From: Candidatus Nanosynbacter lyticus | Lineage (GTDB): Bacteria; Patescibacteriota; Saccharimonadia; Saccharimonadales; Saccharimonadaceae | Assembly: GCF_000803625.1 (NCBI RefSeq) | Contig: NZ_CP007496.1 | Span: 1-32,000, forward strand | Direction: 5' to 3' | DNA length: 32,000 nucleotides | Shown here: in pieces, positions 1,357 to 20,178 of the stretch | How the letters are laid out: each line of letters opens with the position of its first letter | Position numbering within the stretch: the stretch's first letter is position 1 | Made by a program: the position numbers and the translations under genes | The notes under the pieces: model-generated | Seen by the model: the letters and a program-made list of their open reading frames with translations, nothing else | What the model was told of the DNA's origin: nothing | The model's database searches: none

Positions 1357-1601
1357 TTGTGGAAAAGCTGTGCAGACCCTGTGTTTTTTTGGCGGATTAC
1401 TAACACACAGATATGTGGAAAGAATGAATTACTATGTTAAGCAGTGGAATAGTAGAATAATATCCACCATAAAGCCCACAGCCAATACACAGAGTTTTCC
1501 ACCTATAAAATCAACCAACTACCTCTATCTGAATACATTTTTTACCCAGTTTCCACAATACCTATTACTATTAAGACTAATTAAAAATTAAGGAAAGTAT
1601 A
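1357..1601. promoter_or_regulatory. Candidate oriC segment: cluster of DnaA-box-like 9-mers plus an AT-rich tract in the dnaA-dnaN spacer
   Basis: Five matches to TTATCCACA with 1-2 mismatches, local consensus TTTCCAC(A/C). Sites: 1358-1366 (complement TTTTCCACA), 1414-1422 (complement CTTTCCACA), 1460-1468 ATATCCACC, 1495-1503 TTTTCCACC, 1549-1557 GTTTCCACA. AT-rich stretch at 1560-1600. The dnaN Shine-Dalgarno AAGGAAAG lies just before 1602. Confidence 0.6.
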
Positions 1602-2699
1602 ATGAAAGTATCGGTCACTCAAGAAAAACTTGCAAAAGCTCTTAATCTCATCAAAGACATTGCTTCAAGTCGTAATGAATTACCAATATTAAATAATATT
1701 TTACTATGTACTGATGGAGGCAGATTATTAATCGCTGGAACAAATTTGGAAATTGCCTCTACTCAATATATTGGTGCTAAAATTGATAAGCACGGCTCGA
1801 TTACCATCCCTGCTCGCTTGGTCTCAGAATTTATCTCAAACTTACCAAGCGGTACTGTTGAGCTTGAAGTCAAAAATGAGCATCTTCATATTACATCGGG
1901 TAAATTCTCATCAGTTATCAATGGTGTGGTGGCGGATGAGTATCCGGAATTACCAACAATTGACGAAAAAACTGCCATCCAATATGAAATCGATGTTGAA
2001 GATTTAAAGAAGGCGATAATTCAAACGAAAATTGCGGTTAGTTCTGATGTGACGCGGGCGGTTTTGACTGGTGTGTATTGGCATAATCACGAAGGCTCGT
2101 TATATCTGGCAGCTACTGATGGTTATCGATTGGCGGAAAAAAGACTAGCTAAGTCTAATGATGAAGTATCAGCTATTATCCCTGCTTCGACACTTTCAGA
2201 GGTAAGCAAGAGTGTTGGTGAAGAGAAAAAAATCACCGTTCTCTTTGATGAATCTCAAGTATGCTTCAGAACGGGAGATATGGAAATCGTTAGCCGGTTG
2301 ATTGACGGAAAATTCCCTGATTATCGTCAATTGATTCCGTCAAATTCAGAGACGGAAATCGTGATTAAAAAAGCTGATTTTAGTAGAGTGACAAAGATTG
2401 CAGCATTATTTGCGCGTGAATCTGGTGGCGGAATAACCGTGACCGCCTCAAAGGAAAACTCCCTATTATCTATCCACTCAATCGCATCTGAGCTAGGTGA
2501 AAACACCTCAGAAGCTTCGGCTTCTATATCAGCTGACGGTCAAGTAACACTTAATTCGCGCTATTTAACGGAAGTTCTGAATATTATTGATGCTGACGAA
2601 ATTACATTCTCGTTTAACGGTAAATTATCGCCATGTGTCATCCGAGAGCAGGTAAAAAACCCTGATTATACACACATTATTATGCCACTTAAGAGTTAG
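1602..2699 (+). CDS. dnaN: DNA polymerase III beta sliding clamp
   Basis: 365-aa ORF directly after dnaA. N-terminus MKVSVTQEKLAKALNLI...LPILNNILL. Three-domain length and the ATDGYRLA motif are typical of DnaN. Confidence 0.95.
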   Translation: MKVSVTQEKLAKALNLIKDIASSRNELPILNNILLCTDGGRLLIAGTNLEIASTQYIGAKIDKHGSITIPARLVSEFISNLPSGTVELEVKNEHLHITSGKFSSVINGVVADEYPELPTIDEKTAIQYEIDVEDLKKAIIQTKIAVSSDVTRAVLTGVYWHNHEGSLYLAATDGYRLAEKRLAKSNDEVSAIIPASTLSEVSKSVGEEKKITVLFDESQVCFRTGDMEIVSRLIDGKFPDYRQLIPSNSETEIVIKKADFSRVTKIAALFARESGGGITVTASKENSLLSIHSIASELGENTSEASASISADGQVTLNSRYLTEVLNIIDADEITFSFNGKLSPCVIREQVKNPDYTHIIMPLKS

Positions 2700-3336
2700 T
2701 GGAAAATGGTGATAACCTAGATGCTGCTTCGGATAAAATTTCTTCTGGAATATTTTTAGTATTATAAGTAGTATTGATTATTTGTGGTCTAGTTTTAATT
2801 GTCCATTTATTATTTTCTTTTTTTAATATGACAGTGTAGGCGTCTCCTGAATTTCTATCTATATCCTCTCTTTGATAGGTGGCGGCATACCAATCGATAT
2901 TCTTTCCTAATATAATTTCCTTTTTAAGTATGAAATATGATTTTAATTCTGGGTATTTAGTAAATAATACAGCTGAAATCTCATTTTTGTATTCGGCTAT
3001 TTTATTGGACATAAATTTCTTGCTGTAGCTGGTTTTTATAGATACATCCCTGTCTGATCCTTCGACTGTAAATTCTGTGTAATTTTCATTTATATGTCCA
3101 GACTTAGATGAGGTTTTAATTATATATTTGCCATCTGATAATTTTATTTTAGTATCTCCTGCTAACGATATAATTTCAGTGTTATTTTTTGCATTATTGC
3201 GATATATTTTAGCCGATAAGTCTGGTTTGTCGAAAAATATCGAAATAGTATAGGTTGGTTGAATGAAGAAAAAAGACAATAATAATAGTACGACTATTAT
3301 AGAACTTATTATTATAATAATATTTCTTCGATTCAT
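2689..3336 (-). CDS. Hypothetical bitopic membrane protein (N-terminal TM, PEGA-like beta-rich region, C-terminal globular domain); last gene of the T4SS-like cluster
   Basis: 215-aa ORF. TM helix IIIIISSIIVVLLLLSFFFI. Very AT-rich coding sequence. 3-nt gap to the upstream gene. 3' end overlaps the dnaN 3' end by 11 nt (convergent). Confidence 0.6.
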   Translation of the reverse strand: MNRRNIIIIISSIIVVLLLLSFFFIQPTYTISIFFDKPDLSAKIYRNNAKNNTEIISLAGDTKIKLSDGKYIIKTSSKSGHINENYTEFTVEGSDRDVSIKTSYSKKFMSNKIAEYKNEISAVLFTKYPELKSYFILKKEIILGKNIDWYAATYQREDIDRNSGDAYTVILKKENNKWTIKTRPQIINTTYNTKNIPEEILSEAASRLSPFSTNS

Positions 3337-3339
3337 AAA

Positions 3340-3948
3340 TTACTCCTTAAACACATTGGCATAATTTCTAAAAACAATATTTAGTTTTGATGGATCAAAT
3401 CCTTGTTCTTTAATTTTATTAATAGCAGCATTTCTATATCCTTCTATAGTATCGATCTCTACAATAATACCATTTGGGATATTTGGATCTACTCTATAGC
3501 CTATAGAGTATATTAGATTTTTGATAGGTAATTTTTTAATTATTGGATTTGCATCTTCTAATGCTTTTTGCTCGTCAACAAGTTTGTCTGTTGTAATTTT
3601 GTCTATTTCAGCGCCCCTAGAAGATGATTTTAACTCTTTAGTTGCCTCTTGAGTAATTGGAATAAGTGAAAATACTATCCTTAGTGGTTTATCTTTCTTT
3701 ACTTCTATATGAACGGTTTCGCTCTTAAAGCCATCTCTAGATGCTTTAAAATCATATATTCCTGGTTCTAGATATATAATTTGTGATCCGATAATTTTTT
3801 TATTTTCTACGGTAATTTCTGCTTTATTTGGTGAGACTAATAAAAATACTGGTACCGTATTAATTCTGGATGTATATATGACAATTCCGTAGGTTAATAT
3901 AATAAGTGATGATAAAAATAGTAATATACTAATTGTTCTTTTGTTCAT
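3340..3948 (-). CDS. Hypothetical bitopic membrane protein with PEGA-like domain
   Basis: 202-aa ORF. TM helix ISILLFLSSLIILTYGIVIY. The segment YLEPGIYDFKASRDGFKSETVHIEVKKDKPLRIVFSL resembles the PEGA beta-sandwich motif. Start codon overlaps the stop of the upstream hydrolase gene by 1 nt. Confidence 0.6.
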   Translation of the reverse strand: MNKRTISILLFLSSLIILTYGIVIYTSRINTVPVFLLVSPNKAEITVENKKIIGSQIIYLEPGIYDFKASRDGFKSETVHIEVKKDKPLRIVFSLIPITQEATKELKSSSRGAEIDKITTDKLVDEQKALEDANPIIKKLPIKNLIYSIGYRVDPNIPNGIIVEIDTIEGYRNAAINKIKEQGFDPSKLNIVFRNYANVFKE

Positions 3949-5162
3949 TATTTTTTCCTATACCAAGTTACACTTGGAGAAGTTAAACTTTCACCTCCTG
4001 CTTTTGGTGCATATTCGCATTGTGAAGCAGATGCTATTTTTGAATCAAAACCCTCTATATCGCCAACGTAAACAAAGGTATGTCCTGGGCTGTGTGCGAC
4101 ATCACCGGGTTTAAGATCTGCTATATTTATTGAGTTGCCAGCACCAAGATTTTGCCAGTTCTCTTCAGCCCAAGCACGCTGCGTGGCTGTCGGGCCAGCC
4201 TTACCGTTTTCGCCTCCGTAATTATAGTTCTTATCAAATCCACTGTCATTTAGTATCGTTGTCACAAAGGCACCACAGTCTACACCGCCCCCAAGACAAG
4301 AATCTCCAATGTATCTGTTCTCGCTTTTTGCCTTTTCTATAGCTTTTGCATATTCAGGTTTTTTATCTGTACGTACAGTTTTTTCTGGCCAGGCATAACG
4401 TTTGACATAGTCGATAAAGTCGCCGCCACTTGATGAAGAGCATCCTCCTCCGCTTCCGCCCGTACCATTGAATCTTTCATAAATCTTTTGAGCAGCAGCA
4501 CCACGTATATTTTTGACCTGCTCTTTAGTCATAGCTGATTTTTCAAAATCATCATGCCAAAAAATAGTAGCCTCCTCTACTGTTTTTAAGGTTTTTAGTA
4601 GCTCCCAAGAATTTGACGCAGTACCGAATCCAGAAGCTGTAACCGGTCTTTCCGTTCCTTCTTGAACCAGATACTCTAATTCGAAAATTAATAATTTATC
4701 GTTATCTTCTACAGGAATAGAGTCTATCATTCCTTTTTCGTTGGGTGCGCCACCATATTCTTGACTGTAATATTTTTTTAGATCGGATGGTATTTTATTA
4801 GCTATTAAAGTACGCCTTCCAAATGTCCATTGAGCAAGACCCCATCCTCCGGATTCCCATCCCTGTCCTACTTCATGCCTAGTAGGACTAAATCCTGACT
4901 CTGCTTGAATATTAGCCATCACACCAGCCGTTTGCTCTGCACTTAATCCGACATTACGCAAGTATCCCCAAATCTTTTCTTGATTGTCAGCTCCAGATAT
5001 ACCAGCAGACGAAGAATCGGAACATGTCGTGTCATTTTTATTAAACCATAAGATATTATTATTGATATATGTATTTGGATATCCTGCTGCATAAGAAATC
5101 GGCTGAACAGTAGATATAAATAATACGGCAATACAAATAGCAATGAATATTTTTTTATACAT
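3948..5162 (-). CDS. Secreted two-domain peptidoglycan hydrolase: lysozyme-like (phage-tail-lysozyme type) N-domain plus NlpC/P60-CHAP-like cysteine peptidase C-domain (CwlT-like architecture)
   Basis: Signal-like N-terminus MYKKIFIAICIAVLFISTV. The ATG at 5162 is preferred over the 5186 start given in the ORF track. Muramidase-type motif ANIQAESGFSPTRHE...GGWGLAQWT. G/S linker GTGGSGGGCSSSSGG. Candidate catalytic Cys in GVDCGAFV and His in SPGHTFVYVG. Confidence 0.8.
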   Translation of the reverse strand: MYKKIFIAICIAVLFISTVQPISYAAGYPNTYINNNILWFNKNDTTCSDSSSAGISGADNQEKIWGYLRNVGLSAEQTAGVMANIQAESGFSPTRHEVGQGWESGGWGLAQWTFGRRTLIANKIPSDLKKYYSQEYGGAPNEKGMIDSIPVEDNDKLLIFELEYLVQEGTERPVTASGFGTASNSWELLKTLKTVEEATIFWHDDFEKSAMTKEQVKNIRGAAAQKIYERFNGTGGSGGGCSSSSGGDFIDYVKRYAWPEKTVRTDKKPEYAKAIEKAKSENRYIGDSCLGGGVDCGAFVTTILNDSGFDKNYNYGGENGKAGPTATQRAWAEENWQNLGAGNSINIADLKPGDVAHSPGHTFVYVGDIEGFDSKIASASQCEYAPKAGGESLTSPSVTWYRKK

Positions 5163-5622
5163 CAGTCTGATTCCTCGCATATTCATTAACTATGTCCGTG
5201 GGTACGCCAGCTTGCTTTAGCGAATCTATCGTTTTTTCGCTATTGACTCCTGCAACGACTGTATTATCCTTAAAAATAGCATAAGAATCATAAGTGGAAT
5301 TAGTAATATGGCTAAAAATTGTCATTTTTATTAATTTAAATCCGCCCTGTTCTTTGACTAAGATATATTTTTTTAGTTCACGTTTTCCATACTTACTGGA
5401 AGTGGAATTAAGTAATTCAATGATAATATTCTGCTCAATTGGTTGTTGAGGGCTAGTCTTTTGGGTGGCTGATTTTTTACTGACGGTTTGCTCGGACGAT
5501 AAAATAGTGGTGTACTTACCTTTATCTGGATTTTTCGTGATAAAGAATACAACCAGAATATTTATGAAAAGCACGATAGATAATATTAGTATAGTTTTAT
5601 CTTCCCTATTCATATCAAACAT
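5155..5622 (-). CDS. Hypothetical small bitopic membrane protein (T4SS-cluster member)
   Basis: The ORF track gives 5155..5748, but its first 42 codons overlap the end of the M15 gene. The internal ATGs at 5622 (MFDM) or 5613 (MNRED) straddle the upstream TGA stop at 5617..5615, which suggests coupling. TM helix ILILSIVLFINILVVFFI followed by a domain of about 110 aa. Confidence 0.55.
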   Translation of the reverse strand: MFDMNREDKTILILSIVLFINILVVFFITKNPDKGKYTTILSSEQTVSKKSATQKTSPQQPIEQNIIIELLNSTSSKYGKRELKKYILVKEQGGFKLIKMTIFSHITNSTYDSYAIFKDNTVVAGVNSEKTIDSLKQAGVPTDIVNEYARNQTDV

Positions 5623-8608: not shown

Positions 8609-8611
8609 CTT

Positions 8612-10471
8612 TTATACTTCTCCGTAACCACCAATTGGTGTATCAGACGGCTTTACTTGTTGAGCTACGGGATTGGTGTTAATCAGGTTATACTCAGTGT
8701 CGCTAGCTTGAATTTGGATATGAACGTGATTTTGCCCAGCAAAGAATAAGCCTTGACCAACTGGGAAATTAGATAGTCGTTTTTGTTCTTCATCGGTCAA
8801 TTTAAATACCTGAGCGAGGACATCAACAGCGCTGGTGGATTGTTTTAATAGTAATTGCATTGATGAGTTGGAGACTATGGCGCGACCCATCTTACTACCA
8901 ACGAAATCTTCCACGTCCTGAGTGATAGTGGTTAATCCTAATTGATACTTACGGGCGCGCTTTGCTAGGGAGAATAAGAAATTGGCGGAATCATCATATT
9001 TCATCAATTGCCAGGCCTCGTCCACAATCAGCATGCGCTTTTTCTGGTCAGTGCGTGTAATATTCCAGATGTGGTTCAGGACAATATACATTGCGGTTGG
9101 CCGAAGTTCATCTTCAAGGTCGCGAATATTAAACACTACCATATTATTGTTGATGTCAATATTACTTTGCTGTGAGAAAATACCAGCAAATGTTCCAGAG
9201 GTAAATTTGCGTAGACGCTGTGCCAGGCTTGGTCCAGTGCCACCCATGTGAAGCAAGGTGTCATATAAGTCAGAAATAGTTGGAGGAGTGGAATTGTGAG
9301 TCAGTGGATCGGATGTAATACCGACACGCGCGTAGGTGTCAATGAGTGCTTGATCGATGTCTGCCTCTTCCGCTGGTGTTAATCCCGCTACAACTTGCCC
9401 GCTGGCTGTTGTTTGTGCCCCGCCTAGCATTTGTCGCAATAATCCATGCAGCGTTACTAGGTTTGCTCTTAAAGCGTCGTCCGCCTCCTCGGTATCGATG
9501 ACTCGCGGTAAGTCAAAAGGATTAATCCTTGTATCGCTATTTAGACTTAGTCGAATATAGCTACCGCCAACTGCGTCACAAAGTTTTTGATACTCATTTT
9601 CTGGGTCAATAATCACAATGTCTGACCCAACCATCATACTCCTTAGAGCCTCTAATTTAACAGTAAATGATTTACCGGCACCAGATTTAGCAAACACCAC
9701 CATATTGGCATTTTCCAGGCTAAACCTATCAAAAATCACCAGACCGTTATTGTGCATATTAATTCCATACAGGACGCCCTTATTATCTGTTAGGTCGGCT
9801 GAAGTGAATGGGAAGCTGGTAGAAATTGCGCCTGTATTCATATTGCGGCGAATTTGCAGCTCATCGGCTAACTGTGGGACTGTGCTATTGAGCCCCTGCT
9901 CTTGCTGGCTGGAGGCCACTTTGGAGAAGACTAATTGTTGTCCAAATATTGTTTCAATTTTGTGTTGCACAAAGTTCAATTCATCCATACTATCGGCATA
10001 AATTGTAATGTATAGTCCGTAGCGGAAGAACTTCTCTGCCCCAATCTGTAGCTGATCGCGTAATTCTTCGGCGTCTTGTAAGGCAGCTTCCAGTCCTGGA
10101 TCACGCACGCGTCCCTTTTCCGAATTGATATTCATGCTAGCTTCCAGCTGGGTAACTTTTTTGCGCAGATTATTCAACACAATTTGCGTATCAACCGGAT
10201 AAATAAACATACTAATATCCAGTACTTCATCGATATTAATGACTGAACTGAGCCAGCCGGTGTAGATTTGTCGTGGATAGCCATAGACATACATAGTACG
10301 ACCATATTTTGAACCTAGTCGGAAATGATCGGAATGAAGTTCAATGCTACTTGGTGCAATAAAATCACGCAGTGTACGGACACCGGTTAAAAAGGCTTGC
10401 TCAACTTCAGCTTGTTCGCGCGCTCGTTGTTGTGCGGCGATATCAACAGCGTCTAATTTCTTCTTTGCCAT
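8612..10471 (-). CDS. virB4: VirB4-family type IV secretion ATPase (PrgJ/ConE/TrsE-like)
   Basis: 619 aa. Walker A FAKSGAGKSF and Walker B MLIVDEAWQLM. Downstream motif LTTITQDVEDF. N-terminal segment GSKYGRTMYVYGYPRQIYTGWLSSV is typical of monoderm VirB4 proteins. Start overlaps the upstream stop as TAATG. Confidence 0.9.
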   Translation of the reverse strand: MAKKKLDAVDIAAQQRAREQAEVEQAFLTGVRTLRDFIAPSSIELHSDHFRLGSKYGRTMYVYGYPRQIYTGWLSSVINIDEVLDISMFIYPVDTQIVLNNLRKKVTQLEASMNINSEKGRVRDPGLEAALQDAEELRDQLQIGAEKFFRYGLYITIYADSMDELNFVQHKIETIFGQQLVFSKVASSQQEQGLNSTVPQLADELQIRRNMNTGAISTSFPFTSADLTDNKGVLYGINMHNNGLVIFDRFSLENANMVVFAKSGAGKSFTVKLEALRSMMVGSDIVIIDPENEYQKLCDAVGGSYIRLSLNSDTRINPFDLPRVIDTEEADDALRANLVTLHGLLRQMLGGAQTTASGQVVAGLTPAEEADIDQALIDTYARVGITSDPLTHNSTPPTISDLYDTLLHMGGTGPSLAQRLRKFTSGTFAGIFSQQSNIDINNNMVVFNIRDLEDELRPTAMYIVLNHIWNITRTDQKKRMLIVDEAWQLMKYDDSANFLFSLAKRARKYQLGLTTITQDVEDFVGSKMGRAIVSNSSMQLLLKQSTSAVDVLAQVFKLTDEEQKRLSNFPVGQGLFFAGQNHVHIQIQASDTEYNLINTNPVAQQVKPSDTPIGGYGEV

Positions 10472-11346
10472 TATAGTCTTTCTCCTGTTGGTGCTTGTCC
10501 TGTGCCTTTAGTGACGTAGGTAGTAGTTAGTTCACTCGGGTCGATTTCTGACAGTGATTCACGTGATGATGTGTCGGGATTATATGAAGTGTAGAATAAC
10601 TCACCCAACTGACGGGTGTTTAATTGCCAGCTTTTTACCCCAATTTGGAACAAGCCGCTCATTACTGAATCAATACGATTTTTTATCTCATCCTTTGCTT
10701 TTGTGTATGTAACTTGATCAATTTTTGTTACAGTCGCTTCTTTTTTTCCGCTAAAGAAACTACTGAATAGTCCTTTTGTTTGTTGCTTGAATGCATTAGT
10801 ATCACCATCAGGATAATACGGTACAACTACGTAAAAACTTTTATCCATAATATTTGCTTCTTGCGCTAAAACATCAATAAAGTCCATATAATCATCCATC
10901 AGAACATTGAGCAACATGTTATCTTGATTACGTCGGATATCAGCCAGTCTGTCTAGATAAGGCCCAATGTCTACCCGGCGTGAACGGACCAGAATTTGAA
11001 TTGGAAAATATAGAGAATTGATGAAATTTTGATAGCTGAACTCTATTCCCTCTCTTTCGCGTGAACTCATCAAATCAAAGTTAATTGACTCACATTCGAT
11101 TACTGCTCGGAAACTGCCGTCACTCATAATAATCATATTTTCACGCATTTCAGAAAACAGGAGAGTATTTTGAGTGCTGATTGGTCCACTCTGTTTTTTA
11201 TTTTCTGGTGACTTATCCGGGGTTGGTGTAGTAGCAGATCCTGCTATGGTTGTATTCACGGCGGATTGCTGAGGAATATTAGGAATAGCCGCATTGGTTT
11301 GCGGTAATTGCTGATTCAATTGCTGATTTTGTAACTCTGGTTGCAT
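10471..11346 (-). CDS. Hypothetical T4SS-associated protein, translationally coupled to VirB4 (Q/N/P-rich N-terminus plus globular domain)
   Basis: The ORF track starts at the GTG at 11355. The ATG at 11346 is preceded by the SD-like AGGTGGGG. No TM segment seen. Stop TAA overlaps the virB4 ATG by 1 nt. Confidence 0.6.
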   Translation of the reverse strand: MQPELQNQQLNQQLPQTNAAIPNIPQQSAVNTTIAGSATTPTPDKSPENKKQSGPISTQNTLLFSEMRENMIIMSDGSFRAVIECESINFDLMSSREREGIEFSYQNFINSLYFPIQILVRSRRVDIGPYLDRLADIRRNQDNMLLNVLMDDYMDFIDVLAQEANIMDKSFYVVVPYYPDGDTNAFKQQTKGLFSSFFSGKKEATVTKIDQVTYTKAKDEIKNRIDSVMSGLFQIGVKSWQLNTRQLGELFYTSYNPDTSSRESLSEIDPSELTTTYVTKGTGQAPTGERL

Positions 11347-11355
11347 AAACCCCAC

Positions 11356-12246
11356 CTAACGTAATGAAATCACCACTTCCTCTTCTGCTAATTTATTTTC
11401 TTGCTGAATTCGATTTGCCTCACGTGAAATCGTTTCAATTGAAAGGTCGCTGTGATTATTTGCCAAATCTATTATAGCAGGTGATACGTCGTTTAAGCTA
11501 GTTTGCGGCGTGGCAGTCGGTTGGCTATTAGTAGGTTTATTGTCTGACAGCGGATTGATGGTTGACTGGCGCATTGTTGGGTATGGATTTATCTGAAGGC
11601 GTAAGTCGGACGGTTTTTCTGAGTCGTTATTAGTCTGAGATGGTTGCTCAGATAGTTGACCTGTTTGCATTTTCTCTATTATCTGCTGTCGCCTACGGAC
11701 ATCTGACTGGCTAATTAGATGGTTAATGTTTTGTGCTGTAGTGCTATTTTCATCTAGAATATCATTGGCCGCTTGGCCTTCGTTAAATAAATCGGCGCGC
11801 ATTGAACTATTCGGGTTATTAACTCCACGGATTGACCAACCTTGGCTGTCTACCAGGTTTGCTAAGTATGACAATCGCCGCTGAACCTCGGTTTGATCGT
11901 ATTTATTGCCATATATCTTCTCCTCAGTTTTTGGTGCGACAACTTCTACTAACGTTTCAATACCGTCAGGCTGCCATAGGCGTTTTTTCGGTTTTAACAT
12001 AAAAGAAATAACTGCCGCAAGGTATACTTCCATCGGTTGATCTTTTTTAAGAGGTAAAGCTAAAGCCCCAAAAAACAAAACAACCGGCATTGGAATTAAA
12101 AATAAGGGTAGCAACAATTGGCTCAAAGCATACGCAATACCAATTCCAACAACTGCGGTAATTAAAAACACAAACTGCCGGAAACTAAATGGTCCAAGTA
12201 GCTTATCCTCCGCCTCAACATCCTGAGGAACTTTATATATAGACAT
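11356..12246 (-). CDS. PrgI/VirB3-like two-TM protein with long disordered Q/S/N/P-rich C-terminus
   Basis: N-terminus KVPQDVEAEDKLLGPFSFRQFVFLITAVVGIGIAYALSQLLLPLFLIPMPVVLFFGALALPL, a motif followed by a TM hairpin as in the PrgI/ConD/TcpE class. Located immediately upstream of the VirB4 module. Confidence 0.65.
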   Translation of the reverse strand: MSIYKVPQDVEAEDKLLGPFSFRQFVFLITAVVGIGIAYALSQLLLPLFLIPMPVVLFFGALALPLKKDQPMEVYLAAVISFMLKPKKRLWQPDGIETLVEVVAPKTEEKIYGNKYDQTEVQRRLSYLANLVDSQGWSIRGVNNPNSSMRADLFNEGQAANDILDENSTTAQNINHLISQSDVRRRQQIIEKMQTGQLSEQPSQTNNDSEKPSDLRLQINPYPTMRQSTINPLSDNKPTNSQPTATPQTSLNDVSPAIIDLANNHSDLSIETISREANRIQQENKLAEEEVVISLR

Positions 12247-12255
12247 ACTGCTTAT

Positions 12256-12264
12256 ATTATACCA
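12256..12264 (-). promoter_or_regulatory. Extended -10 element TGgTATAAT, 9 nt upstream of the PrgI-like ATG
   Basis: Minus-strand reading is tttTGGTATAATataagcagtATG. There is no SD between the box and the ATG at 12246. Confidence 0.4.
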
Positions 12265-12276
12265 AAAATACGATGA

Positions 12277-14787
12277 TTATAGCATGTTGCGAAGGTTTTT
12301 GAACTGATCTTTAGCCGCATCAATTACACTCGCTGACAATCTTTCGTCGCTGAGGATTGTATCAATAGTCTCCTTAATAGATGCGCGTTTTTCTTTGCTA
12401 ATTATAGAGGTATTATTAACAGCTTCTATTAATAGTTTAACCCCATCAGCATCAGTGTTAGCCAAAGCTTCCGGTTTATATTTACCACCCTGTAGCCATT
12501 CAGCACAATAATTGAGCAAATCTTGACGGTTATTAATAGTACCCTTAACCATATCGTCAATTAATTTACCACCCATAAAGGAAGCTTTGTTTTTCACGCC
12601 AGATGATGCTAATGCTGCCGCCACAGAAGAATAGAATTCTGGCGGTAATTCGCTAACAAGCTGAGCAACTTCTGTAACGGTCCCATATTTAATCTGCTCT
12701 TCAATTGCAGCTTCACGTACATATATGTTATTGCTATCCAATACCGTTCCATCTGAAAGTGTCACGGAATTGCCTAAAGATATCTTTTGTCTTTGCCCAG
12801 AGCTTAGCTTATAATGCTTCATAATCTGATGAGCTTCATCAACGGACTTGGAGAATTCGCTGCGGTTGGTTGATATGGCAGAGGCTAAGGCGGCATCCGC
12901 GCCAAGTAAATTACCTTTATCATCCACTAAGACATGTCCACCAGCCTTCCCTCGAAGTTCCTTGCTGTTTATCAATTGTTTTGCAAATTCACTGTGCTGC
13001 TGGCGTTGAGCGTTATTCTTAATTAGTCCAGACACTGCAATTTCGGTTTCTAGGTCTTTAATGTCTGATATAAATTGAGCTTGTTGCGCGTCTCGCCAAT
13101 TTGAGTATTTAGTTGACTTAGCTCGTAGAGCACGATCGTACTTTCCATACGTATCAGTTGGTGCGTGACCCAGCGTAGCTTCGGTGTATCGATTGTCATC
13201 TTGTGCGGATAACAGATCTGCACGCCTGGAAGCCTGTCTGGCGTCTAAGTCTGACTTCTTATATCTGGCTGTATTTCTGAATGAGTTTTCGGCATTTTTC
13301 TGTGAAGTTTCCAGATCTTTTTTGCGTAATCTACCACTATGATCTGCCCAACGGCGTAAACGATTTGGGTTGAATCGCGCCATATTGGGGTTAGCCAACT
13401 TCTTGTTTTTAGTGATCTCGCGACGATCTTTAGCCCAGTTTTTAGACTTGTCGTACCAACCTTTATTCTTATCATTAACAAACCCAGCGAACTTACCTAA
13501 TACTCCGCCGCTAAGTTTCAGAATTATAGGTGTTAAGGCTAATGGTATAACTTGAACTGCCATTCCTAAGATTTGCATTATTCCACCATTTGCTCCAGTG
13601 GCGTTTTGGATAATTATTATTCCAGCCAATTGTGCCCCACCGAATATTACAGCGAATGCCGGGAAAAATACTAACATCGTGAGGAATAAGTCTCGCCATT
13701 TCTTAAACCATTTTTCTGTGCCAGGAAGTAAATAGCAAACGAAGGCTAAAGGTGAGATGATAATTAGGATTACAATTAAAGCTTGACGTGCTGCCATAAT
13801 TAGAAGCACTAAGAGAAGCACTAGACCTATTCCTACTAATGCCGATAGTGCTAATGGTAGTAGTTCTGCTCCCATGGCTACTGTTGCGACCACTCCACCA
13901 GCTAAAGCTCCGTTGGACAGTATCATCACAATAACTTCTGACCATGTCCAACCTACGCCCGTATTTTCTCCTACGGTGGATATTGTGTTTTTAATCCCCA
14001 TGAAAGCGTCTTGGAAAGCGTAACCAGTTACGTTTGATAAATCTAATAAAATAGCACAAAACGTAAACGATAAATTGACTAACACCGCCGCAATCACTAA
14101 CCTAGGGAGCATTTTTTTGATACCGTAATTGCTAATTCCTACAGAGGTCAATTGTGAGTAGATAATCACCAAAAACGCCACAATAAACGCCACGTTGCTG
14201 ATGTTGCGCATAATGACCCACGCCAAATAAATTCCACTGTTTTGATTGGTCGTTTCTAATGGCTTAGTTTTTAAGAACTCCTGAAGCGCGCTGTACATAT
14301 AATCTATGCCATCAGCTAACCAATTGGAGAGTGGACAGATAATCCAACCTATTCCCTGTACGTCACAGGAAGTGCTGGTTGAATTTTCTGAGGGAGATTC
14401 AATTGAAATAGTTGAGGTGCTGGTTTGTTCGTAGGTGTTTGGTGGCGCAAATGAATAAACCGCGTAAGTTGCGGAACTTAGTGAAGATATTTCGCTTGAT
14501 GGGAAATAAATAACCTTGGCTTCTTTTTTATTCTTATCTTCATTAACATAAACAAGCGAATTATCAGGTAGGTTAAATTGTTTGATCTTTTTATCATCGC
14601 TTACCTTTGTATATTTTTCTTTATTATAGGTTAAATTACGACCACTCCATTCTGCGTCTACGGCGTAAACAGAAGTTGAATGTGCTAAGGTATTAAGAAA
14701 AATGCCCACCAGCATCCCTGCTATCAGCAACACGAACCACTGCAGCCACTTATTAAGAAGCTGCTTATGGGAAATCAACCACTCCAT
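12277..14787 (-). CDS. VirB6/TrbL-like polytopic channel protein, paralogue A (836 aa)
   Basis: N-terminal TM, an ectodomain of about 130 aa, the CDVQGIGWIICPL motif, then 6 or more TM helices (e.g. VGISNYGIKKMLPRLVIAAVLVNLSFTFCAILLDLSNV). Ends in a hydrophilic C-terminal region of about 380 aa. Clear paralogue of 14861..17449. Confidence 0.7.
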   Translation of the reverse strand: MEWLISHKQLLNKWLQWFVLLIAGMLVGIFLNTLAHSTSVYAVDAEWSGRNLTYNKEKYTKVSDDKKIKQFNLPDNSLVYVNEDKNKKEAKVIYFPSSEISSLSSATYAVYSFAPPNTYEQTSTSTISIESPSENSTSTSCDVQGIGWIICPLSNWLADGIDYMYSALQEFLKTKPLETTNQNSGIYLAWVIMRNISNVAFIVAFLVIIYSQLTSVGISNYGIKKMLPRLVIAAVLVNLSFTFCAILLDLSNVTGYAFQDAFMGIKNTISTVGENTGVGWTWSEVIVMILSNGALAGGVVATVAMGAELLPLALSALVGIGLVLLLVLLIMAARQALIVILIIISPLAFVCYLLPGTEKWFKKWRDLFLTMLVFFPAFAVIFGGAQLAGIIIIQNATGANGGIMQILGMAVQVIPLALTPIILKLSGGVLGKFAGFVNDKNKGWYDKSKNWAKDRREITKNKKLANPNMARFNPNRLRRWADHSGRLRKKDLETSQKNAENSFRNTARYKKSDLDARQASRRADLLSAQDDNRYTEATLGHAPTDTYGKYDRALRAKSTKYSNWRDAQQAQFISDIKDLETEIAVSGLIKNNAQRQQHSEFAKQLINSKELRGKAGGHVLVDDKGNLLGADAALASAISTNRSEFSKSVDEAHQIMKHYKLSSGQRQKISLGNSVTLSDGTVLDSNNIYVREAAIEEQIKYGTVTEVAQLVSELPPEFYSSVAAALASSGVKNKASFMGGKLIDDMVKGTINNRQDLLNYCAEWLQGGKYKPEALANTDADGVKLLIEAVNNTSIISKEKRASIKETIDTILSDERLSASVIDAAKDQFKNLRNML

Positions 14788-14795
14788 CTGAGGTT

Positions 14796-14824
14796 ATATT
14801 AGCATTTTTGATGGAAAAAGTCAA
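14796..14824 (-). promoter_or_regulatory. Sigma70-like promoter TTGACT-17-TGcTAATAT, 8 nt upstream of the VirB6-like A ATG
   Basis: Minus-strand reading is TTGACTttttccatcaaaaatgcTAATATaacctcagATG, in the 73-nt gap between the two VirB6-like genes. No SD. Confidence 0.5.
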
Positions 14825-14860
14825 GAGAAGAAGTTGTGTATGATTTTTTCTTGCTTAATG

Positions 14861-17449
14861 TCATCTGCCGTATTTATTAACCTCTTCGTCAGAGGGAATA
14901 ATTATCCCTCCAGAGCTACTGTTGCTCTGTTGGTTATTTTGTTGAGAATTAGAGGAGGATGTATTCTGTGGTGTATTCTCGGCAACCACTCCGTGAGCAC
15001 TTAACGCCTCATATATTGCTTGATTTATATTTTTTGCAGTATTTGGATTTGATACGGCAACTTCTCCTGCTTTTTTAAATGCAGCCGAAGCTTTTTCATT
15101 CTTACTATCGGCAATAGCTTTAGATAGCCATTTGGTTGCTGCGCCATTTTGTACTAAGTGCTCTGCTTGTAGATTTCCAGACTCGGTATTATTTACTGCC
15201 ATGTTAGATAGATTTTGCATACCATCAATCTTATCGTTGAGAATAGCATCTCCGAATCCGTTTCCTATGATATTATTATCTCCCTTTGCAAATGAACCTT
15301 TAATCGCTCGTTGTTTTATAGAAGTGTCTACACCTTTTAGGCTACTCAGCACCTTCATACGTTCTTCAAAACTACCATTAGCCATAATATGGTCAATAGC
15401 AGCTGCGCGCATAGCTTTTGAGGCAGTTGTGTTTGTGCCGTTGGCTATATTGGCTATATTACCTGATGTCATACCTTGCAACATTGTGGATGCGTTTTCA
15501 ACGTCGCTTTCGAACGCCTTAGCTACAGTTGCGCGGGCGCGTGCTCCACCTTTATCCCAACCCATAAATCGACCGAGTGGACTACTATCCCTCCACGTAG
15601 CAATTTTACCCGTTCGCCTGCTTGCGCGTTTTCTGTCCATGAAGTCTGAATATTTTCTTTTCGTATCACCAATAACAGAATTGTCAACACGTCCTTTTGC
15701 TGTGCCTTTTACGTTTCCAGCGAATCGACTATGCGCATTAGCACCCATTCTACCTATCTTTGCGCCAATGTTGCCCAGCGAATTTAATGAGCTCTGTAGT
15801 ACGAAAGGTGTAGCGCCCAATGGCAATATAGATGCTGCTAGTGCTGCGAACTGCATAGTTTCTTTCGGGTTGTTTGGATCGTCTGTGGCTGACGCTGCTA
15901 ATACAGCTCCCGCTAATTTTCCAGCTCCGTATAGAAGGGATATTACAGGAAATACTATTAATAACCCTCTAAACACTGATACCCATTTTTTGAACAGATT
16001 TTCGGTATTTGGGAGAAGCCATGCTGCAAATGCTAATGGAGATATCGCTATCAATAATATAATGGCAGATTGTCGAACAATTAATATAACCAGCACTACA
16101 AGTAGAGCTAACAGCAGGGCTAAAATAGTAGGTATACTTACAGCAAGGAATATAAACAGACCTACTCCAACTAAGGTTAATCCAGCGGCTATTAAATTAT
16201 AAAAAGATCCAGTTGCTGCTGATTGAGTATCTATTCCTGATGCAGCTCCTTCTAAAACTCCCTTAAGAGAAAAACCGAGTATATTAGATAAGTCTACAGC
16301 TAATTGACATAGGTAAAAAGATAAGTTTACAAGTAAAGCTCCTATTATTAACCTTGGCAGAATTCTCTTAATGCCGTAGTTGCTTATACCGACATTGCTT
16401 ATTTGGGAAAATATTACCCATAAAAATATCAAAGCAAATGTGGCGTTTGCAATGTCGCGAAAGAAATCCCAAGCTTGTTTTAATCCCCCGGATGTAGAAT
16501 CGTTTTTAAAAATTCCTGGGTCAATAGATAGAAACTGTGATATTGCGGAGTAGGAGGCGTCTCCCAAGCTACCAGCAAAACTCATCAATGGACAAACCAA
16601 CCATCCTACACCGTCTACGCCACAGGAATTTTTCTCTTCGTCACTTTCTTCTGGCTTATTAAGAGCATTTTCTGCCTCTTGAGCTTTAGCGTCCATCTCT
16701 TTTTTAATGTCATCCCAGGCTATAGTTGTCATATTTTGTATGACTTGACTCTTATCTATACCTGATCTTGAGCTAACACAGTCGGTGAAGTATTGATCCT
16801 TGGCGCTAGATCCAGTGTCTCCGTATTTACGAGAGGATACAGATTCTTCAGCCGCAGCTATACAAGTCCCTATTAATTTCTTTGCAAGCTTACTTTTTGC
16901 ATTTTGATCACAGCTTATGCTATCACCAATAGTTGCGCATCCAGCTTCGATTTTTTCGCTGTCCGGCAACTCCTTATACCAAGTACTATTTGTAATTGTT
17001 GGTTTTAGAGCTTCCTCTAGCTTGGGCATAGTTACTTGATTAGTGGCAGCATCTATTGAGGCCTTTTTTCTGGCATTTTTAACTTGTTCCTCTTTTGATA
17101 ATTCCACACACCTACCCTGTGAATAGGGTCCTTCCTTAGGTGTTGATCCCTGTACTTCTCGTGATTCAGCTTTATATCCACTATCACATTTAAGTCTGTC
17201 ATAGCTCACTCTATGGTTACTTTTACTACTATAACACCACCACCATCCATCATCTTTACTTTCTTCACCTTGAGGGGTTTTCTTGTAATTACCATATTCA
17301 GTATTACAGATAACGGCACCTCCTTTAATAGGTTTGGAGGTTGCGTCATCCGCATATGCAACTAAAATTGGCTGCAAAATTATAAAAGCTAGCGATGCAA
17401 ATAAAATAATCAGCAGTGGTTTTATAGGATTATAGTAAAAATACCGCAT
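14861..17449 (-). CDS. VirB6/TrbL-like polytopic channel protein, paralogue B (862 aa)
   Basis: N-terminal TM, then a Cys-rich ectodomain of about 270 aa. Motif CGVDGVGWLVCPL. Core VGISNYGIKRILPRLIIGALLVNLSFYLCQLAVDLSNI is nearly identical in pattern to paralogue A. Hydrophilic C-terminal region ends in an S/N/Q low-complexity tail. Confidence 0.7.
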   Translation of the reverse strand: MRYFYYNPIKPLLIILFASLAFIILQPILVAYADDATSKPIKGGAVICNTEYGNYKKTPQGEESKDDGWWWCYSSKSNHRVSYDRLKCDSGYKAESREVQGSTPKEGPYSQGRCVELSKEEQVKNARKKASIDAATNQVTMPKLEEALKPTITNSTWYKELPDSEKIEAGCATIGDSISCDQNAKSKLAKKLIGTCIAAAEESVSSRKYGDTGSSAKDQYFTDCVSSRSGIDKSQVIQNMTTIAWDDIKKEMDAKAQEAENALNKPEESDEEKNSCGVDGVGWLVCPLMSFAGSLGDASYSAISQFLSIDPGIFKNDSTSGGLKQAWDFFRDIANATFALIFLWVIFSQISNVGISNYGIKRILPRLIIGALLVNLSFYLCQLAVDLSNILGFSLKGVLEGAASGIDTQSAATGSFYNLIAAGLTLVGVGLFIFLAVSIPTILALLLALLVVLVILIVRQSAIILLIAISPLAFAAWLLPNTENLFKKWVSVFRGLLIVFPVISLLYGAGKLAGAVLAASATDDPNNPKETMQFAALAASILPLGATPFVLQSSLNSLGNIGAKIGRMGANAHSRFAGNVKGTAKGRVDNSVIGDTKRKYSDFMDRKRASRRTGKIATWRDSSPLGRFMGWDKGGARARATVAKAFESDVENASTMLQGMTSGNIANIANGTNTTASKAMRAAAIDHIMANGSFEERMKVLSSLKGVDTSIKQRAIKGSFAKGDNNIIGNGFGDAILNDKIDGMQNLSNMAVNNTESGNLQAEHLVQNGAATKWLSKAIADSKNEKASAAFKKAGEVAVSNPNTAKNINQAIYEALSAHGVVAENTPQNTSSSNSQQNNQQSNSSSGGIIIPSDEEVNKYGR

Positions 17450-17477
17450 ATGCTTGCATTATAGCATATGCGGTATT
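17440..17477 (-). terminator. Perfect 14-bp inverted repeat (hairpin, intrinsic-terminator-like) spanning the -10 box and the start codon of VirB6-like B
   Basis: Arm 17440-17453 is aataccgcatatgc and arm 17464-17477 is gcatatgcggtatt, with a 10-nt loop. On the minus strand the 3' arm contains ATG CGG TAT and runs into TATTTTTAC. The hairpin lies 22 nt after the lipoprotein stop codon. Confidence 0.5.
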
Positions 17478-17487
17478 GTCATGGTAA
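17458..17487 (-). promoter_or_regulatory. Promoter-like TTACCA-18-TGcTATAAT, 8 nt upstream of the VirB6-like B ATG
   Basis: Minus-strand reading is TTACCAtgacaataccgcatatgcTATAATgcaagcatATG. The -10 box sits in the loop of the 14-bp hairpin. Confidence 0.4.
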
Positions 17488-17498
17488 GATTAGTGACC

Positions 17499-18374
17499 CT
17501 AAGACCACCATGCTTTTTTTTCTACACCGAATGTTATCTCGTTAAGTTCAATCAGATGTTGAATGTTCGACGTATTAACTTCTACGGACATATTAATAGG
17601 ACTGGCTTCGAAGTCCTTATTATTTGATGGCACAGTTATGGTTGCTCCACTTGCCTCAAATCTAACAACTGAATCTTTCGTTCCTTTAGAATTATTGACT
17701 GCGATAGGTTGTTTACTTACTCTCAGTATTTCAGTGTAGTCATAATAAAGCGATCGCTGTTCAACGGTACAGAGTTCCTTTTTGCATGTAGGAGATGTTG
17801 GGTTTGAAGCTGCCCAAAGCTTTCTTATTGCTTCTTTGAATTTTTCTAATTCTTCAGTCTTTTCCGGATTAAACATAGCCGTAGCTAGATTCATTGCCCT
17901 TGTGTAGTTTGCGTCATCAGAATGATCAACACTAAGCATTTGAATTAGTCGGATTATTCTCAATGCACTCCAAGCTGTTTTCTTTGTTACTGGATCAAAA
18001 ACAGGCTCTTCACCGTTATCATAGTTATTTCTAATAAACTGATCTAAAATTCCTACCAAGTCTTCTCTAGAGGCATTCTTGTCGTCTAAGATACTCAGAT
18101 CAATACCTTCGTAATTCCAGTCTTTTAGGGGTTTTAGCATTTCTTCAACATCAGTCTTTCTTGAGGCTGGTGTTTTATCTGGCGACAACTCTGGTGCTGG
18201 ACTCTGAGTTTCTTGCGCTGTAGATGTTGTGATGTCTGGAGTTGGTTCGCTGTGAGTCTCTCTATTACATCCCGCCACTCCAAATGCAAGTGCTGCCGTG
18301 CCAATTAGTGCCATTATTTTTTTTGGTAGTTCTGAACCGCTTGGGTTATTAAGCTTATTGGGACTATAAACCAT
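17499..18374 (-). CDS. Putative lipoprotein, first gene of the T4SS-like cluster
   Basis: 291 aa. Lipobox-like AFGVAGC after a hydrophobic stretch, followed by a P/T/S-rich linker and a globular domain. No recognisable catalytic motif. Confidence 0.6.
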   Translation of the reverse strand: MVYSPNKLNNPSGSELPKKIMALIGTAALAFGVAGCNRETHSEPTPDITTSTAQETQSPAPELSPDKTPASRKTDVEEMLKPLKDWNYEGIDLSILDDKNASREDLVGILDQFIRNNYDNGEEPVFDPVTKKTAWSALRIIRLIQMLSVDHSDDANYTRAMNLATAMFNPEKTEELEKFKEAIRKLWAASNPTSPTCKKELCTVEQRSLYYDYTEILRVSKQPIAVNNSKGTKDSVVRFEASGATITVPSNNKDFEASPINMSVEVNTSNIQHLIELNEITFGVEKKAWWS

Positions 18375-18502: not shown

Positions 18503-18524
18503 TAAAAAACACCCTGTTAGGGTG
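18503..18524 (-). terminator. Rho-independent terminator after tRNA-Asp
   Basis: Minus-strand reading is CACCCTaacAGGGTG followed by TTTTTTATT, immediately 3' of the tRNA. Confidence 0.55.
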
Positions 18525-18534
18525 AAAATATCTG

Positions 18535-18612
18535 TGGCGCGCCCGACCGGATTCGAACCGGCGATCTCCTCCGTGACAGGGAGGCGTGATAGGCCAACTT
18601 CACTACGGGCGC
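18535..18612 (-). tRNA. tRNA-Asp (anticodon GUC), CCA encoded
   Basis: The reverse complement folds as a cloverleaf. Acceptor GCGCCCG/CGGGCGC, anticodon stem CCTCC/GGAGG with loop CTGTCAC, T-arm GCCGGTTCGAATCCGGT, 3' GCCA. Confidence 0.93.
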
Positions 18613-18714: not shown

Positions 18715-19086
18715 ATGACAAAAAGAAATATTATAATCAGTATATTTATAGCAACAGTAATCGCAGGAAGTGTTTTTATACCCAGAATAGCTTTGGCTGC
18801 CAACTGTGGTGGCGCGGAAACCTCTGTTATTTCTTGTGAAGGCGAAGGTAGCACGGCAATTATCAACATAATCAAGCAAGTTATCAAGATCTTAACTGCT
18901 GGTGTTGGTGTTGCTGCTTTTGGGGCTGTTGTATATGGTGCATTTTTATATACTACGTCTGAAGGAAGTCCAGATAAAGTAAAAAAAGCCCGAGAAGTTT
19001 GGATGAATACGGTTATTGGGTTGTTGATGTTTGCATTTATGGTGGCTATTACCAACTTTATCATTCCAGGGGGAGTTTTTAACTAA
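18715..19086 (+). CDS. VirB2/TrbC-like T4SS pilin paralogue P1
   Basis: 123 aa. Signal peptide ...IPRIALA/AN, Cys pair NCGGAETSVISC, then two hydrophobic helices separated by the loop YTTSEGSPDKVKKAREVWMNTVIGL. Confidence 0.7.
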   Translation: MTKRNIIISIFIATVIAGSVFIPRIALAANCGGAETSVISCEGEGSTAIINIIKQVIKILTAGVGVAAFGAVVYGAFLYTTSEGSPDKVKKAREVWMNTVIGLLMFAFMVAITNFIIPGGVFN

Positions 19087-19505: not shown

Positions 19506-19506
19506 T

Positions 19507-19788: not shown

Positions 19789-19789
19789 T

Positions 19790-20170: not shown

Positions 20171-20178
20171 GAGAAAAC

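Follow-up and report, generated by a model that had tools for sequence, protein, structure and literature searches.

The first 32,000 nucleotides of the Candidatus Nanosynbacter lyticus chromosome (NZ_CP007496.1, positions 1 to 32,000; hereafter the window) raise the question of why a set of genes that resembles a conjugation machine stands next to dnaA and dnaN, and of what such a machine is for if not for conjugation. An earlier note on this DNA had proposed that the cluster is a domesticated chromosomal type IV secretion system (T4SS) that an episymbiont uses for something other than self-transfer. Our analysis supports that proposal, which also matches published work on Saccharibacteria. 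We consider it highly probable that the locus encodes a core T4SS derived from the conjugation systems of monoderm bacteria (the mating-pair-formation class MPF-FATA, with a VirB4 of the CD1110 type) that is no longer used for self-transfer and that builds a filament or channel at the contact between epibiont and host. The locus itself is not new: it encodes the chromosomal core T4SS that the ultra-small Saccharibacteria (TM7) need for life on host bacteria, it has been described since 2020, and every element of the earlier interpretation is already in print.

A Conjugation-Type Secretion Core beside dnaN

The cluster consists of eleven open reading frames (ORFs), all on the minus strand and tightly packed between 2689 and 18374, where the earlier note had placed them.

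2689-3336, minus strand: g01, bitopic protein of 215 amino acids (aa), transmembrane helix at residues 6-24
3340-3948, minus strand: g02, bitopic PEGA-like protein of 202 aa, transmembrane helix at residues 6-24
3948-5186, minus strand: g03, secreted cell-wall hydrolase with lysozyme and NlpC/P60-like domains; likely start 5162, giving 404 aa
5155-5622, minus strand: g04, small bitopic protein of 155 aa with a transmembrane helix
5615-8608, minus strand: g05, membrane-anchored scaffold of 997 aa with a VanY/M15 domain at its C-terminus, transmembrane helix at residues 108-126
8612-10471, minus strand: VirB4 ATPase module (NCBIfam NF045971, CD1110 family)
10471-11355, minus strand: TrsD/TraC-like protein of about 291 aa, homologue of the VirB4 N-terminal domain
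11356-12246, minus strand: PrgI/VirB3-like transmembrane-hairpin protein (PF12666)
12277-14787, minus strand: VirB6-like polytopic protein b, 836 aa, seven hydrophobic segments, paralogue of the next
14861-17449, minus strand: VirB6-like polytopic protein a, 862 aa
17499-18374, minus strand: g11, lipoprotein of 291 aa with a VAGC lipobox, first gene of the operon

Spacings were taken first from the starts of the longest ORFs, which gives 3, -1, -32, -134, 3, -1, 0, 30, 73, and 49 nt across the eleven genes, and then from the starts used by homologues and by public gene callers. With g03 starting at 5162 and g04 at 5622, the overlaps of 32 and 134 nt both shrink to 8 nt, and the gaps of 0-73 nt and overlaps of 1-8 nt that had been claimed for eleven co-directional ORFs are borne out. 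A plus-strand ORF of 356 aa (15132-16202) is nested within the gene for VirB6a, and we took it to be a shadow ORF.

The VirB4 protein carries both of the motifs, GAGKS and IVDEAW, by which it had been recognized, and it matches NF045971 (VirB4-like conjugal transfer ATPase, CD1110 family) at 2.5e-114 and 383 bits, far above the curated cut-off of 325. It also matches TIGR02746 (TraC-F-type, 5.9e-54) and, weakly, the CedB and CedD models, and it is 33% identical to the VirB4 of a Brevibacillus plasmid. Its alignment to the CD1110-family model covers positions 166-751 only. The gene immediately upstream, which had been described as a coupled gene for a protein of about 291 aa, is indeed joined to virB4 by a TAATG stop/start junction with a GGAG motif upstream; more exactly, its product is the N-domain of a split VirB4. 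It matches the VirB4_plasma model over positions 96-233 (4.3e-5) and TrsD (3.3e-4), its precomputed Pfam label is PF26593 (TraC-like), and the gene is present in 79 of the 80 related loci that we compared. (These are 80 Saccharimonadales loci, L001-L080, picked by VirB4 similarity from a scan with one genome per species.) As judged by these matches, VirB4 is split over two genes, a TrsD/TraC-like N-domain (10471-11355) and the ATPase (8612-10471).

The PrgI/VirB3-like protein bears out its earlier assignment, with a match to PF12666 over residues 5-90 (3.6e-14), two transmembrane helices, and a long Q/P/S-rich tail. The two giant proteins encoded beyond it had been called VirB6/TrbL-like. That they are polytopic paralogues stands: across a polytopic core of 342 aa they are 35% identical (E=1e-57), and VirB6b is classed as an "extended VirB6" because of its big hydrophilic C-terminal domain. 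The profile support for their kinship with VirB6 and TrbL is sub-threshold: VirB6a matches PF04610 (TrbL) at 1.3e-3 over its full length and at 1.6e-4 when the core alone is used, TrbL matches are seen in 25 of the 63 members of the VirB6-like family (best 8.6e-7), and the sole match of the family profile in the PDB is TrwI, the VirB6 of R388 (E=0.037). The link of the two proteins to VirB6 is weak, though real.

A Divergent Array of VirB2-Like Pilins

Two further features belong with the core.

18715-21010, plus strand: six VirB2-like T4SS pilin paralogues (PF18895)
23675-24100, minus strand: seventh VirB2-like pilin, detached from the array (PF18895, 6.6e-9)

A divergent pilin array had been noted beside the cluster, and its six proteins all match PF18895 with 29-49 bits, where the gathering score is 26.6. 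Several also match TrbC/VirB2 weakly, and every one has a signal peptide and two transmembrane helices, the VirB2 layout. Judged on these features, the array members are VirB2-like pilins of a T4SS and not type IV pilins.

That assignment bears on a different account of the locus, in which the signal-peptide proteins of the array are cargo, not pilins, and in which they or other Sec-exported proteins are pushed out to manipulate the host by a T4SS without a type IV coupling protein (T4CP), as effectors or toxins would be by a machine like Bordetella Ptl. The profile matches and the VirB2 layout of all six proteins speak against their being cargo, and no toxin-like domain was found in them. The Ptl analogy was proposed for TM7x by McLean et al. 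(2020), Ptl too has no T4CP, and Wang et al. (2023) suggest that the system "may instead export proteins." We regard effector secretion of this kind as unlikely, if worth keeping in view; it would be a sub-variant of a filament- or channel-forming T4SS and not in contradiction to it.

The gene table for S. epibionticum likewise has a detached pilin gene, SEML1_0024, which is scored as non-essential (Wang et al. 2023). In the window the detached pilin gene is followed by an ORF for a 172-aa protein with two transmembrane helices and no family match, and the pair (23121-24100) lies amid four tRNA genes.

A Vertically Inherited Locus

The boundaries of the cluster are set by the following features.

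1-1356, plus strand: dnaA, first gene of the window
1602-2699, plus strand: dnaN, directly left of the cluster
18535-18612, minus strand: tRNA-Asp, upstream of the lipoprotein gene, with its own terminator-like hairpin at 18524-18510
21023-21062 and 21066-21096: two perfect hairpins of 17 and 13 bp, back to back between the convergent genes for pilin 6 and hsp20

At its 3' end g01 overlaps dnaN convergently by 11 nt (2689-2699), as had been reported; the overlap arises because recF is absent between dnaN and the cluster. In many environmental relatives (compare L052, L067, L069, and L075) and in S. epibionticum, recF separates the two, whereas in this strain and in relatives of the Nanosynbacter type there is no recF at that place. 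The tRNA-Asp gene and its hairpin (18510-18612) mark the 5' boundary of the T4SS operon, and the paired hairpins (21023-21096) are probably terminators that close the pilin operon. The only Rfam matches in the window were tRNAs, five in number, and PADLOC found nothing relevant there.

Could the cluster be an integrative and conjugative element (ICE), with its relaxase, T4CP, and integrase situated beyond the window? Its parts derive from conjugative systems, with VirB4, VirB3-like, and VirB6-like proteins and a set of wall hydrolases all present as in conjugative MPF-FATA machines; the nearest plasmid VirB4 proteins are 29%-38% identical to that of the window, and 3,993 of the 5,000 best-matching plasmid records are predicted to be conjugative; and a tRNA-Asp gene abuts the cluster. 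Nevertheless, the earlier report that no coupling ATPase, relaxase, VirB11, integrase, or flanking direct repeat is visible in the 32 kb was confirmed in each respect. Domain scans of the window ORFs revealed no T4CP, relaxase, VirB11, or integrase domain. Nor did tblastn searches of the window and of the 80 related loci (10-kb flanks of virB4) with the VirD4 (CD1115 family), relaxase, and MobC of the Brevibacillus plasmid that carries the closest VirB4 type return any match; the VirB4 query alone did so. The coupling protein (VirD4/TcpA) and the relaxase of a conjugative MPF-FATA system are accordingly missing from the window and from the 10-kb flanks. No direct repeats were found that bound the cluster or repeat the 3' end of tRNA-Asp. 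The G+C content of the cluster resembles that of its flanks, except across g01-g02 (2689-3948), where it is 0.283 as compared with 0.37-0.45 in the remainder of the window.

The position of the locus, moreover, is fixed throughout the order: the same place beside dnaA-dnaN and the same gene order recur in more than 50 species-level genomes across Saccharimonadales. Even distant loci keep the order dnaA-dnaN, sometimes recF, accessory genes, the hydrolase of about 1,000 aa, VirB4, TrsD, PrgI, VirB6, divergent pilins, hsp20, and comF. VirB4 is 96%-99% identical to its counterparts in oral Nanosynbacter-like metagenome-assembled genomes, 83%-89% identical across Saccharimonadales, and 83%-99% identical over the 80 loci, as compared with 60%-95% for DnaA and 42%-94% for DnaN; relatives were encoded in 566 of 600 candidate stretches. 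Among loci that, it should be remembered, were chosen by VirB4 similarity, VirB4 was more conserved than DnaA in 43 of 43 comparable cases and more conserved than DnaN in 52 of 52. Because the order of dnaA-dnaN, T4SS, and pilins is conserved throughout the order and VirB4 evolves more slowly than DnaA in all 43 loci, we exclude an ICE, an explanation that we hold to be exceedingly improbable, and conclude that this is a vertically inherited core locus. Its parts, their order, their conservation, and the absence of a T4CP and a relaxase from the neighborhood are direct observations.

Likeness to Published and Known Systems

A T4SS region with VirB4, VirB6, PrgI, and a secreted array of four to six genes was described in TM7x and across Saccharibacteria by McLean et al. 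(2020). Wang et al. (2023) found by transposon sequencing (Tn-seq) that the T4SS genes of S. epibionticum, SEML1_0006-0019 in their text, are essential; in their gene table SEML1_0004-0011 and 0013-0019 are essential or growth-defective and 0012 is not. They noted that the system resembles Gram-positive conjugative systems, that its pilins (the array SEML1_0014-0019) are essential, and that it has no recognisable coupling or relaxase proteins. Quinonero-Coronel et al. (2025) recognized a Patescibacteria VirB4 clade beside MPF-FATA, catalogued TrsD, PrgI, VirB6, and VirB2 arrays, and reported almost no relaxases and a location of the T4SS close to dnaA and dnaN. A 2025 FEMS review summarises the saccharibacterial T4SS findings and raises the idea of the pilus as a conduit, and a 2026 preprint describes tubular structures at the parasite-host interface.

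The window shows each of the sequence features of the chromosomal T4SS of the Patescibacteria clade: the VirB4 lineage, as judged by identity and family score, an adjacent TrsD-like gene, PrgI, VirB6 (more weakly), the pilin array, a cluster free of relaxase and T4CP, and adjacency to dnaA-dnaN, the last of which we saw in more than 50 loci. Its T4SS region is syntenic, gene for gene, with SEML1_0001-0021 of S. epibionticum ML1, in which the T4SS is SEML1_0004-0019, and it matches that of N. lyticus TM7x. Shared with S. epibionticum are dnaA, dnaN, two small exported beta-sandwich proteins, the lysozyme/Cys-peptidase, the protein of about 1,000 aa that ends in a DD-peptidase fold, VirB4, the TrsD-like protein of about 290 aa, PrgI, two VirB6-like proteins of about 850-1,090 aa, the divergent array of six pilins, hsp20, and comF, as well as the lack of a relaxase and a T4CP from the cluster. 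By position, g01 is the counterpart of SEML1_0004; g02 and g05 are the counterparts of SEML1_0005 and SEML1_0007. The two loci also differ. In the window the lipoprotein gene precedes the pair of VirB6 genes in the direction of transcription, whereas it lies between them in S. epibionticum and in L045, L052, L067, and L079; the lysozyme protein of the window is shorter (404-412 versus 643 aa) and has one lysozyme domain as opposed to two; and the window has a separate gene for a 155-aa bitopic protein and, unlike S. epibionticum, no recF after dnaN. Essentiality for epibiotic growth was shown by Tn-seq for the S. epibionticum orthologues, and by analogy the genes of the window may be needed in the same way.

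How does the machine compare with better-known ones? The monoderm MPF-FATA systems comprise the CD1110/CTn2 type, pGO1 (TrsC/TrsD/TrsE), and pCF10 (PrgH-L). The window resembles them in having a VirB4 above the CD1110 cut-off and a TrsD-like protein as in pGO1, and its local order of PrgI, VirB4, and then a large wall hydrolase is that of the Brevibacillus plasmid. It departs from MPF-FATA systems in lacking VirD4, relaxase, and MobC, in being chromosomal, origin-adjacent, and vertically inherited, and in having two extended VirB6 paralogues; and it has VirB2-like pilins, which the Gram-positive systems lack. Unlike the Brevibacillus plasmid, which encodes VirB4 as a single chain of 804 aa, the window has VirB4 split in two genes, and its g05 scaffold is not homologous to the 817-aa NlpC/P60 protein encoded after the plasmid VirB4 (hhalign probability 0.2). 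The Con machinery of ICEBs1 (ConD/ConE/ConG/CwlT) combines VirB3-like, VirB4, and VirB6-like proteins with a hydrolase of two domains, muramidase and NlpC/P60. Compared by parts list and not by sequence, the window is like ICEBs1 in the logic of its parts; it lacks ConQ (the T4CP), the NicK relaxase, an integrase, and att sites, and it has pilins.

Like the window cluster, Bordetella Ptl, Brucella VirB, and Helicobacter ComB have no coupling protein, but these are diderm machines of the VirB1-11 type with outer-membrane core complexes, unlike the window. With the F-type systems, in which TraC (VirB4) alone drives pilus assembly, the locus shares a VirB4 as its only ATPase beside VirB2-like pilins. 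F-type pili need no VirB11. The F systems are, however, diderm and conjugative, with TraD (a T4CP) and a relaxase. The CD1110-type VirB4, PrgI, the TrsD-like protein, and the wall hydrolases thus uphold the earlier view that the cluster resembles Gram-positive conjugation machines more than it does VirB1-11.

Conserved Motor and Variable Surfaces

The proteins around the core are in large part enzymes and exposed proteins, and they are far less constant than VirB4. As the earlier note had it, the 997-aa membrane protein g05 ends in an M15/VanY peptidase (residues 881-994, 8.3e-16). Its family consists of a conserved scaffold of about 780 aa joined to an exchangeable C-terminal enzyme, which is VanY, M23, C39-like, NlpC/P60, or CHAP (examples are L020:11886-14912, L022:5692-8652, L028:11861-14893, L046:11942-16456, and L047, ending at 15416). 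An EEP (endonuclease/exonuclease/phosphatase) domain is often inserted, and GH43 is present in one member. Three different C-terminal types are found in the one clade that is defined by VirB4 identity of at least 91% to the window. The family profile matched PDB entries in the C-terminal peptidase domains only. These swappable enzymes resemble a polymorphic "warhead" and suggest, but do not show, an activity that is perhaps directed at the host envelope.

The lysozyme half of g03, which had been described as a CwlT-like lysozyme plus NlpC/P60 hydrolase, is secure: it matches PF18013 (phage-tail-type, 1.9e-24), and the family profile finds phi29 gp13 lysozyme in the PDB at 1.4e-22. The NlpC/P60 half matches weakly (MepS/Spr, 3e-3 to 5e-3). 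The architecture of g03 is in these terms CwlT-like, with a lysozyme and a probable NlpC/P60-like domain. Similarly, g01 and g02 are bitopic, as claimed, whereas their PEGA-like nature emerges at the level of the family: PEGA or CarboxypepD_reg matches are found in 12-14 of 34 pooled homologues, but the window proteins themselves match weakly, the best being g02 to CarboxypepD_reg at E=0.015. The gene table of Wang et al. (2023) lists SEML1_0004 as prealbumin-like and SEML1_0005 as a PEGA domain protein. The sister strains L007, L009, and L013 have at the g01-g02 site a different protein of 241 aa that is 28%-29% identical to g02, and no g01 homologue was detected in these three strains.

The small bitopic protein g04 and the lipoprotein at the start of the operon were likewise correctly read; the one has a transmembrane helix and the other a VAGC lipobox. 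Homologues of g04 form 73 protein clusters, called at 152-169 aa, and a similar small gene occupies the same position in many loci. The AlphaFold2 model of its ectodomain (predicted local distance difference test score, pLDDT, about 90) has one helix, a four-stranded sheet, and two short helices; a Foldseek search of the PDB with the model gave no match at E<0.001, and the TM-scores stayed below 0.3. Homologues of g11 (P0001-P0113) keep the signal peptide, the lipobox, and a T/P-rich linker, and their C-terminal part is swapped among at least three unrelated cassettes, even in close strains; the cassette of the window is carried by only four of the 80 loci. An AlphaFold2 model of g11, built with 20 homologues, had a mean pLDDT of 43.8 and was unusable for fold assignment.

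The contrast with the motor is evident among strains whose DnaA is 94%-95% and whose VirB4 is 96%-98% identical to those of the window. In these strains g05 is 65%-77% and g04 45%-79% identical, pilins 2-6 are 38%-78% identical, bar one near-identical strain, and the lipoprotein is usually replaced. In strains with a VirB4 that is 96%-99% identical, VirB6a is 34%-80% identical with partial coverage, and its N-terminal ectodomain varies strongly. A slowly evolving VirB4 together with hypervariable exposed parts fits an indispensable motor that is coupled to host-facing surfaces.

A Hairpin at the Start of a VirB6 Gene

A further conserved feature lies in the gap between the lipoprotein gene and the gene for VirB6a.

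17440-17477, minus strand: perfect 15-bp hairpin (minimum free energy -26.4 kcal/mol, z=-6.3)
Counterparts in related loci: L012:2644-2683, L020:5193-5228, L045:4782-4820, L069:5442-5477, L075:5166-5204, L079:5477-5510

The VirB6a start codon is inside the 3' arm of the hairpin, and a U-rich tract comes next. In related loci, perfect hairpins of 13-16 bp lie over or abut the start codon of whichever VirB6 gene comes next after the lipoprotein gene, and their stem sequences are unrelated between lineages. The structure, then, is conserved and the sequence is not. The related loci, 1.33 Mb in all, contain 51 perfect hairpins whose stems reach 12 bp or more; 21 of them end in the interval from -20 to +5 nt around a gene start, and in every one of these 21 cases the gene belongs to the VirB6 family. 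The hairpin of the window may terminate or attenuate transcription behind the lipoprotein gene, act as a gate on translation, or do both. Because its loop reads TATAAT and TTACCA stands 18 nt upstream, it is also possible that it holds a promoter that gives a near-leaderless VirB6 mRNA.

The Replication Origin and Head-On Transcription

If the origin is at dnaA-dnaN, as the earlier note had supposed, the whole cluster is transcribed head-on to replication. With 13 matches as against 9.7 expected, the window shows no enrichment of the DnaA box of the E. coli type, TTATCCACA, and we derived a lineage DnaA box, TTTTCCACA, from the related loci. In some 30 of them it forms a conserved trio a short way upstream of dnaA, in the orientations +, +, and - and with spacings of 54 and 33 nt (for example, L012:20562-20657), and there is a single TTTTCCACA box in the dnaA-dnaN gap of the window (1358-1366). 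The 10 kb upstream of dnaA were taken from a metagenomic contig of the same species (L083:1-10000) that is 98.65% identical in the overlap. Bulk GC skew is negative from -10 kb to +18 kb, with a cumulative minimum at about 18 kb, in the divergent region between T4SS and pilin genes. The skew at third codon positions (GC3 skew), taken gene by gene, gives another picture: left of dnaA it is +0.17 to +0.50 in minus-strand genes (with one short ORF at about -0.03) and -0.19 to -0.30 in plus-strand genes, the signs are reversed right of 27 kb, and the switch point fits best near dnaA/dnaN (sum of squared errors 889-1049 as compared with 1221 for 18.5 kb). An origin between the T4SS and pilin operons, as the bulk skew would have it, was rejected on this ground; the minimum in the bulk skew is a product of purine loading on the coding strand.

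Because the GC3 skew switches near dnaA and a trio of DnaA boxes lies there, there is moderate support for an origin that adjoins dnaA, just left of the window, and hence for head-on transcription of the cluster. Head-on orientation is not special to the T4SS operon here, since some three quarters of all coding sequence in these first 32 kb has the lagging-strand template as its strand. As a separate observation, the T4SS genes have an unusually weak GC3 skew (mean about -0.05, versus -0.2 to -0.4 in neighboring lagging-strand genes).

What the Machine May Do

We propose that PrgI/VirB3, the two-gene VirB4, and the two extended VirB6 paralogues would form a translocon in the cytoplasmic membrane. 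Peptidoglycan would be opened by two wall hydrolases, the lysozyme plus NlpC/P60 protein and the 997-aa VanY scaffold, and the small bitopic beta-sandwich proteins, the 155-aa bitopic protein, and the variable lipoprotein would supply wall-spanning and surface parts. The divergent operon would contribute six Sec-exported VirB2-like pilins, which the VirB4 motor alone, without VirD4 or VirB11, would polymerise into a pilus or tube. The essential job of the system would then be a filament and channel at the site of contact between epibiont and host, through which macromolecules or nutrients would cross and DNA would not be conjugated. Pilus assembly, action on the host, and the substrate are in this proposal what we infer from the parts.

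Several points weigh against so full a picture. The support for this strain comes from sequence, and within it the identity of the two VirB6 proteins leans on sub-threshold matches. No VirB8-like component (a bitopic protein with the NTF2 fold, such as PrgL, TraM, or ConB) was identified among the window proteins, the model of g11 being unusable and that of g04 having no significant fold match. A T4CP homologue is present, and non-essential, elsewhere in the S. epibionticum genome (Quinonero-Coronel et al. 2025), and by analogy one may exist elsewhere in this genome too.

The direction of transport is the crux of another account, in which the T4SS runs in reverse and imports host cytoplasmic material such as RNA, nucleotides, or other nutrients. 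Saccharibacteria are known to lack de novo synthesis of nucleotides, amino acids, and fatty acids, pilus-mediated import has been speculated upon in the 2025 FEMS review, and the 2026 preprint reports acquisition of host RNA along with its tubular structures, which are maybe T4SS pili. ComB and the archaeal Ced system are precedents for import without a T4CP, and the window VirB4, as we have seen, matches the CedB and CedD models weakly. Against it stands that the essential function is not DNA uptake by way of ComEC. We judge an uptake machine to be improbable but far from negligible.

A narrower form of uptake, natural competence in the manner of Helicobacter ComB, had been among the candidate roles in the earlier note. 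It would accord with the lack of a T4CP and a relaxase and with a comF-like gene nearby (21705-22379). ComB function, however, needs ComEC, and comEC is dispensable in Saccharibacteria: a comEC deletion in S. epibionticum is viable and abolishes competence, competence is attributed to type IV pili, and comF (SEML1_0021) is scored NE (non-essential) in the table of Wang et al. (2023). Since comEC is dispensable and competence is ascribed to type IV pili while the T4SS is essential, published genetics disfavors this role, to which we assign very little probability.

To return to the filament or channel at the epibiont-host contact, we offer a more particular and tentative version of it, possible rather than probable as a whole. 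The machine might be a conduit that breaches the host envelope, with its exposed parts serving as diversifying determinants of host specificity. Candidates for such parts would be the C-terminal enzyme of g05, the cassette-swapping lipoprotein, the VirB6a ectodomain, and the pilin paralogues; enzymes of the g05 family might target the wall or membrane of the host and not the epibiont's own wall; and expression of the VirB6-VirB4 core might be gated by the hairpin at the VirB6 start.

In the two main papers on this system we found no word of the conservation split between motor and surface, the exchangeable C-terminal enzymes of the protein of about 1,000 aa encoded after VirB4, the hairpin at the VirB6 start codon, or the support from GC3 skew and DnaA boxes for head-on orientation. 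No T4SS before this one had been reported as essential for its own bacterium, and the system extends widely through a huge radiation of uncultivated bacteria, as has been published. The importance of the T4SS is therefore already recognised in print, and this locus adds another strain, not a discovery. Its value is to the specialist, and lies in the motor/surface conservation split, the polymorphic "warhead," the hypervariable lipoprotein, and the VirB6 start hairpin, which bear on host range and regulation.

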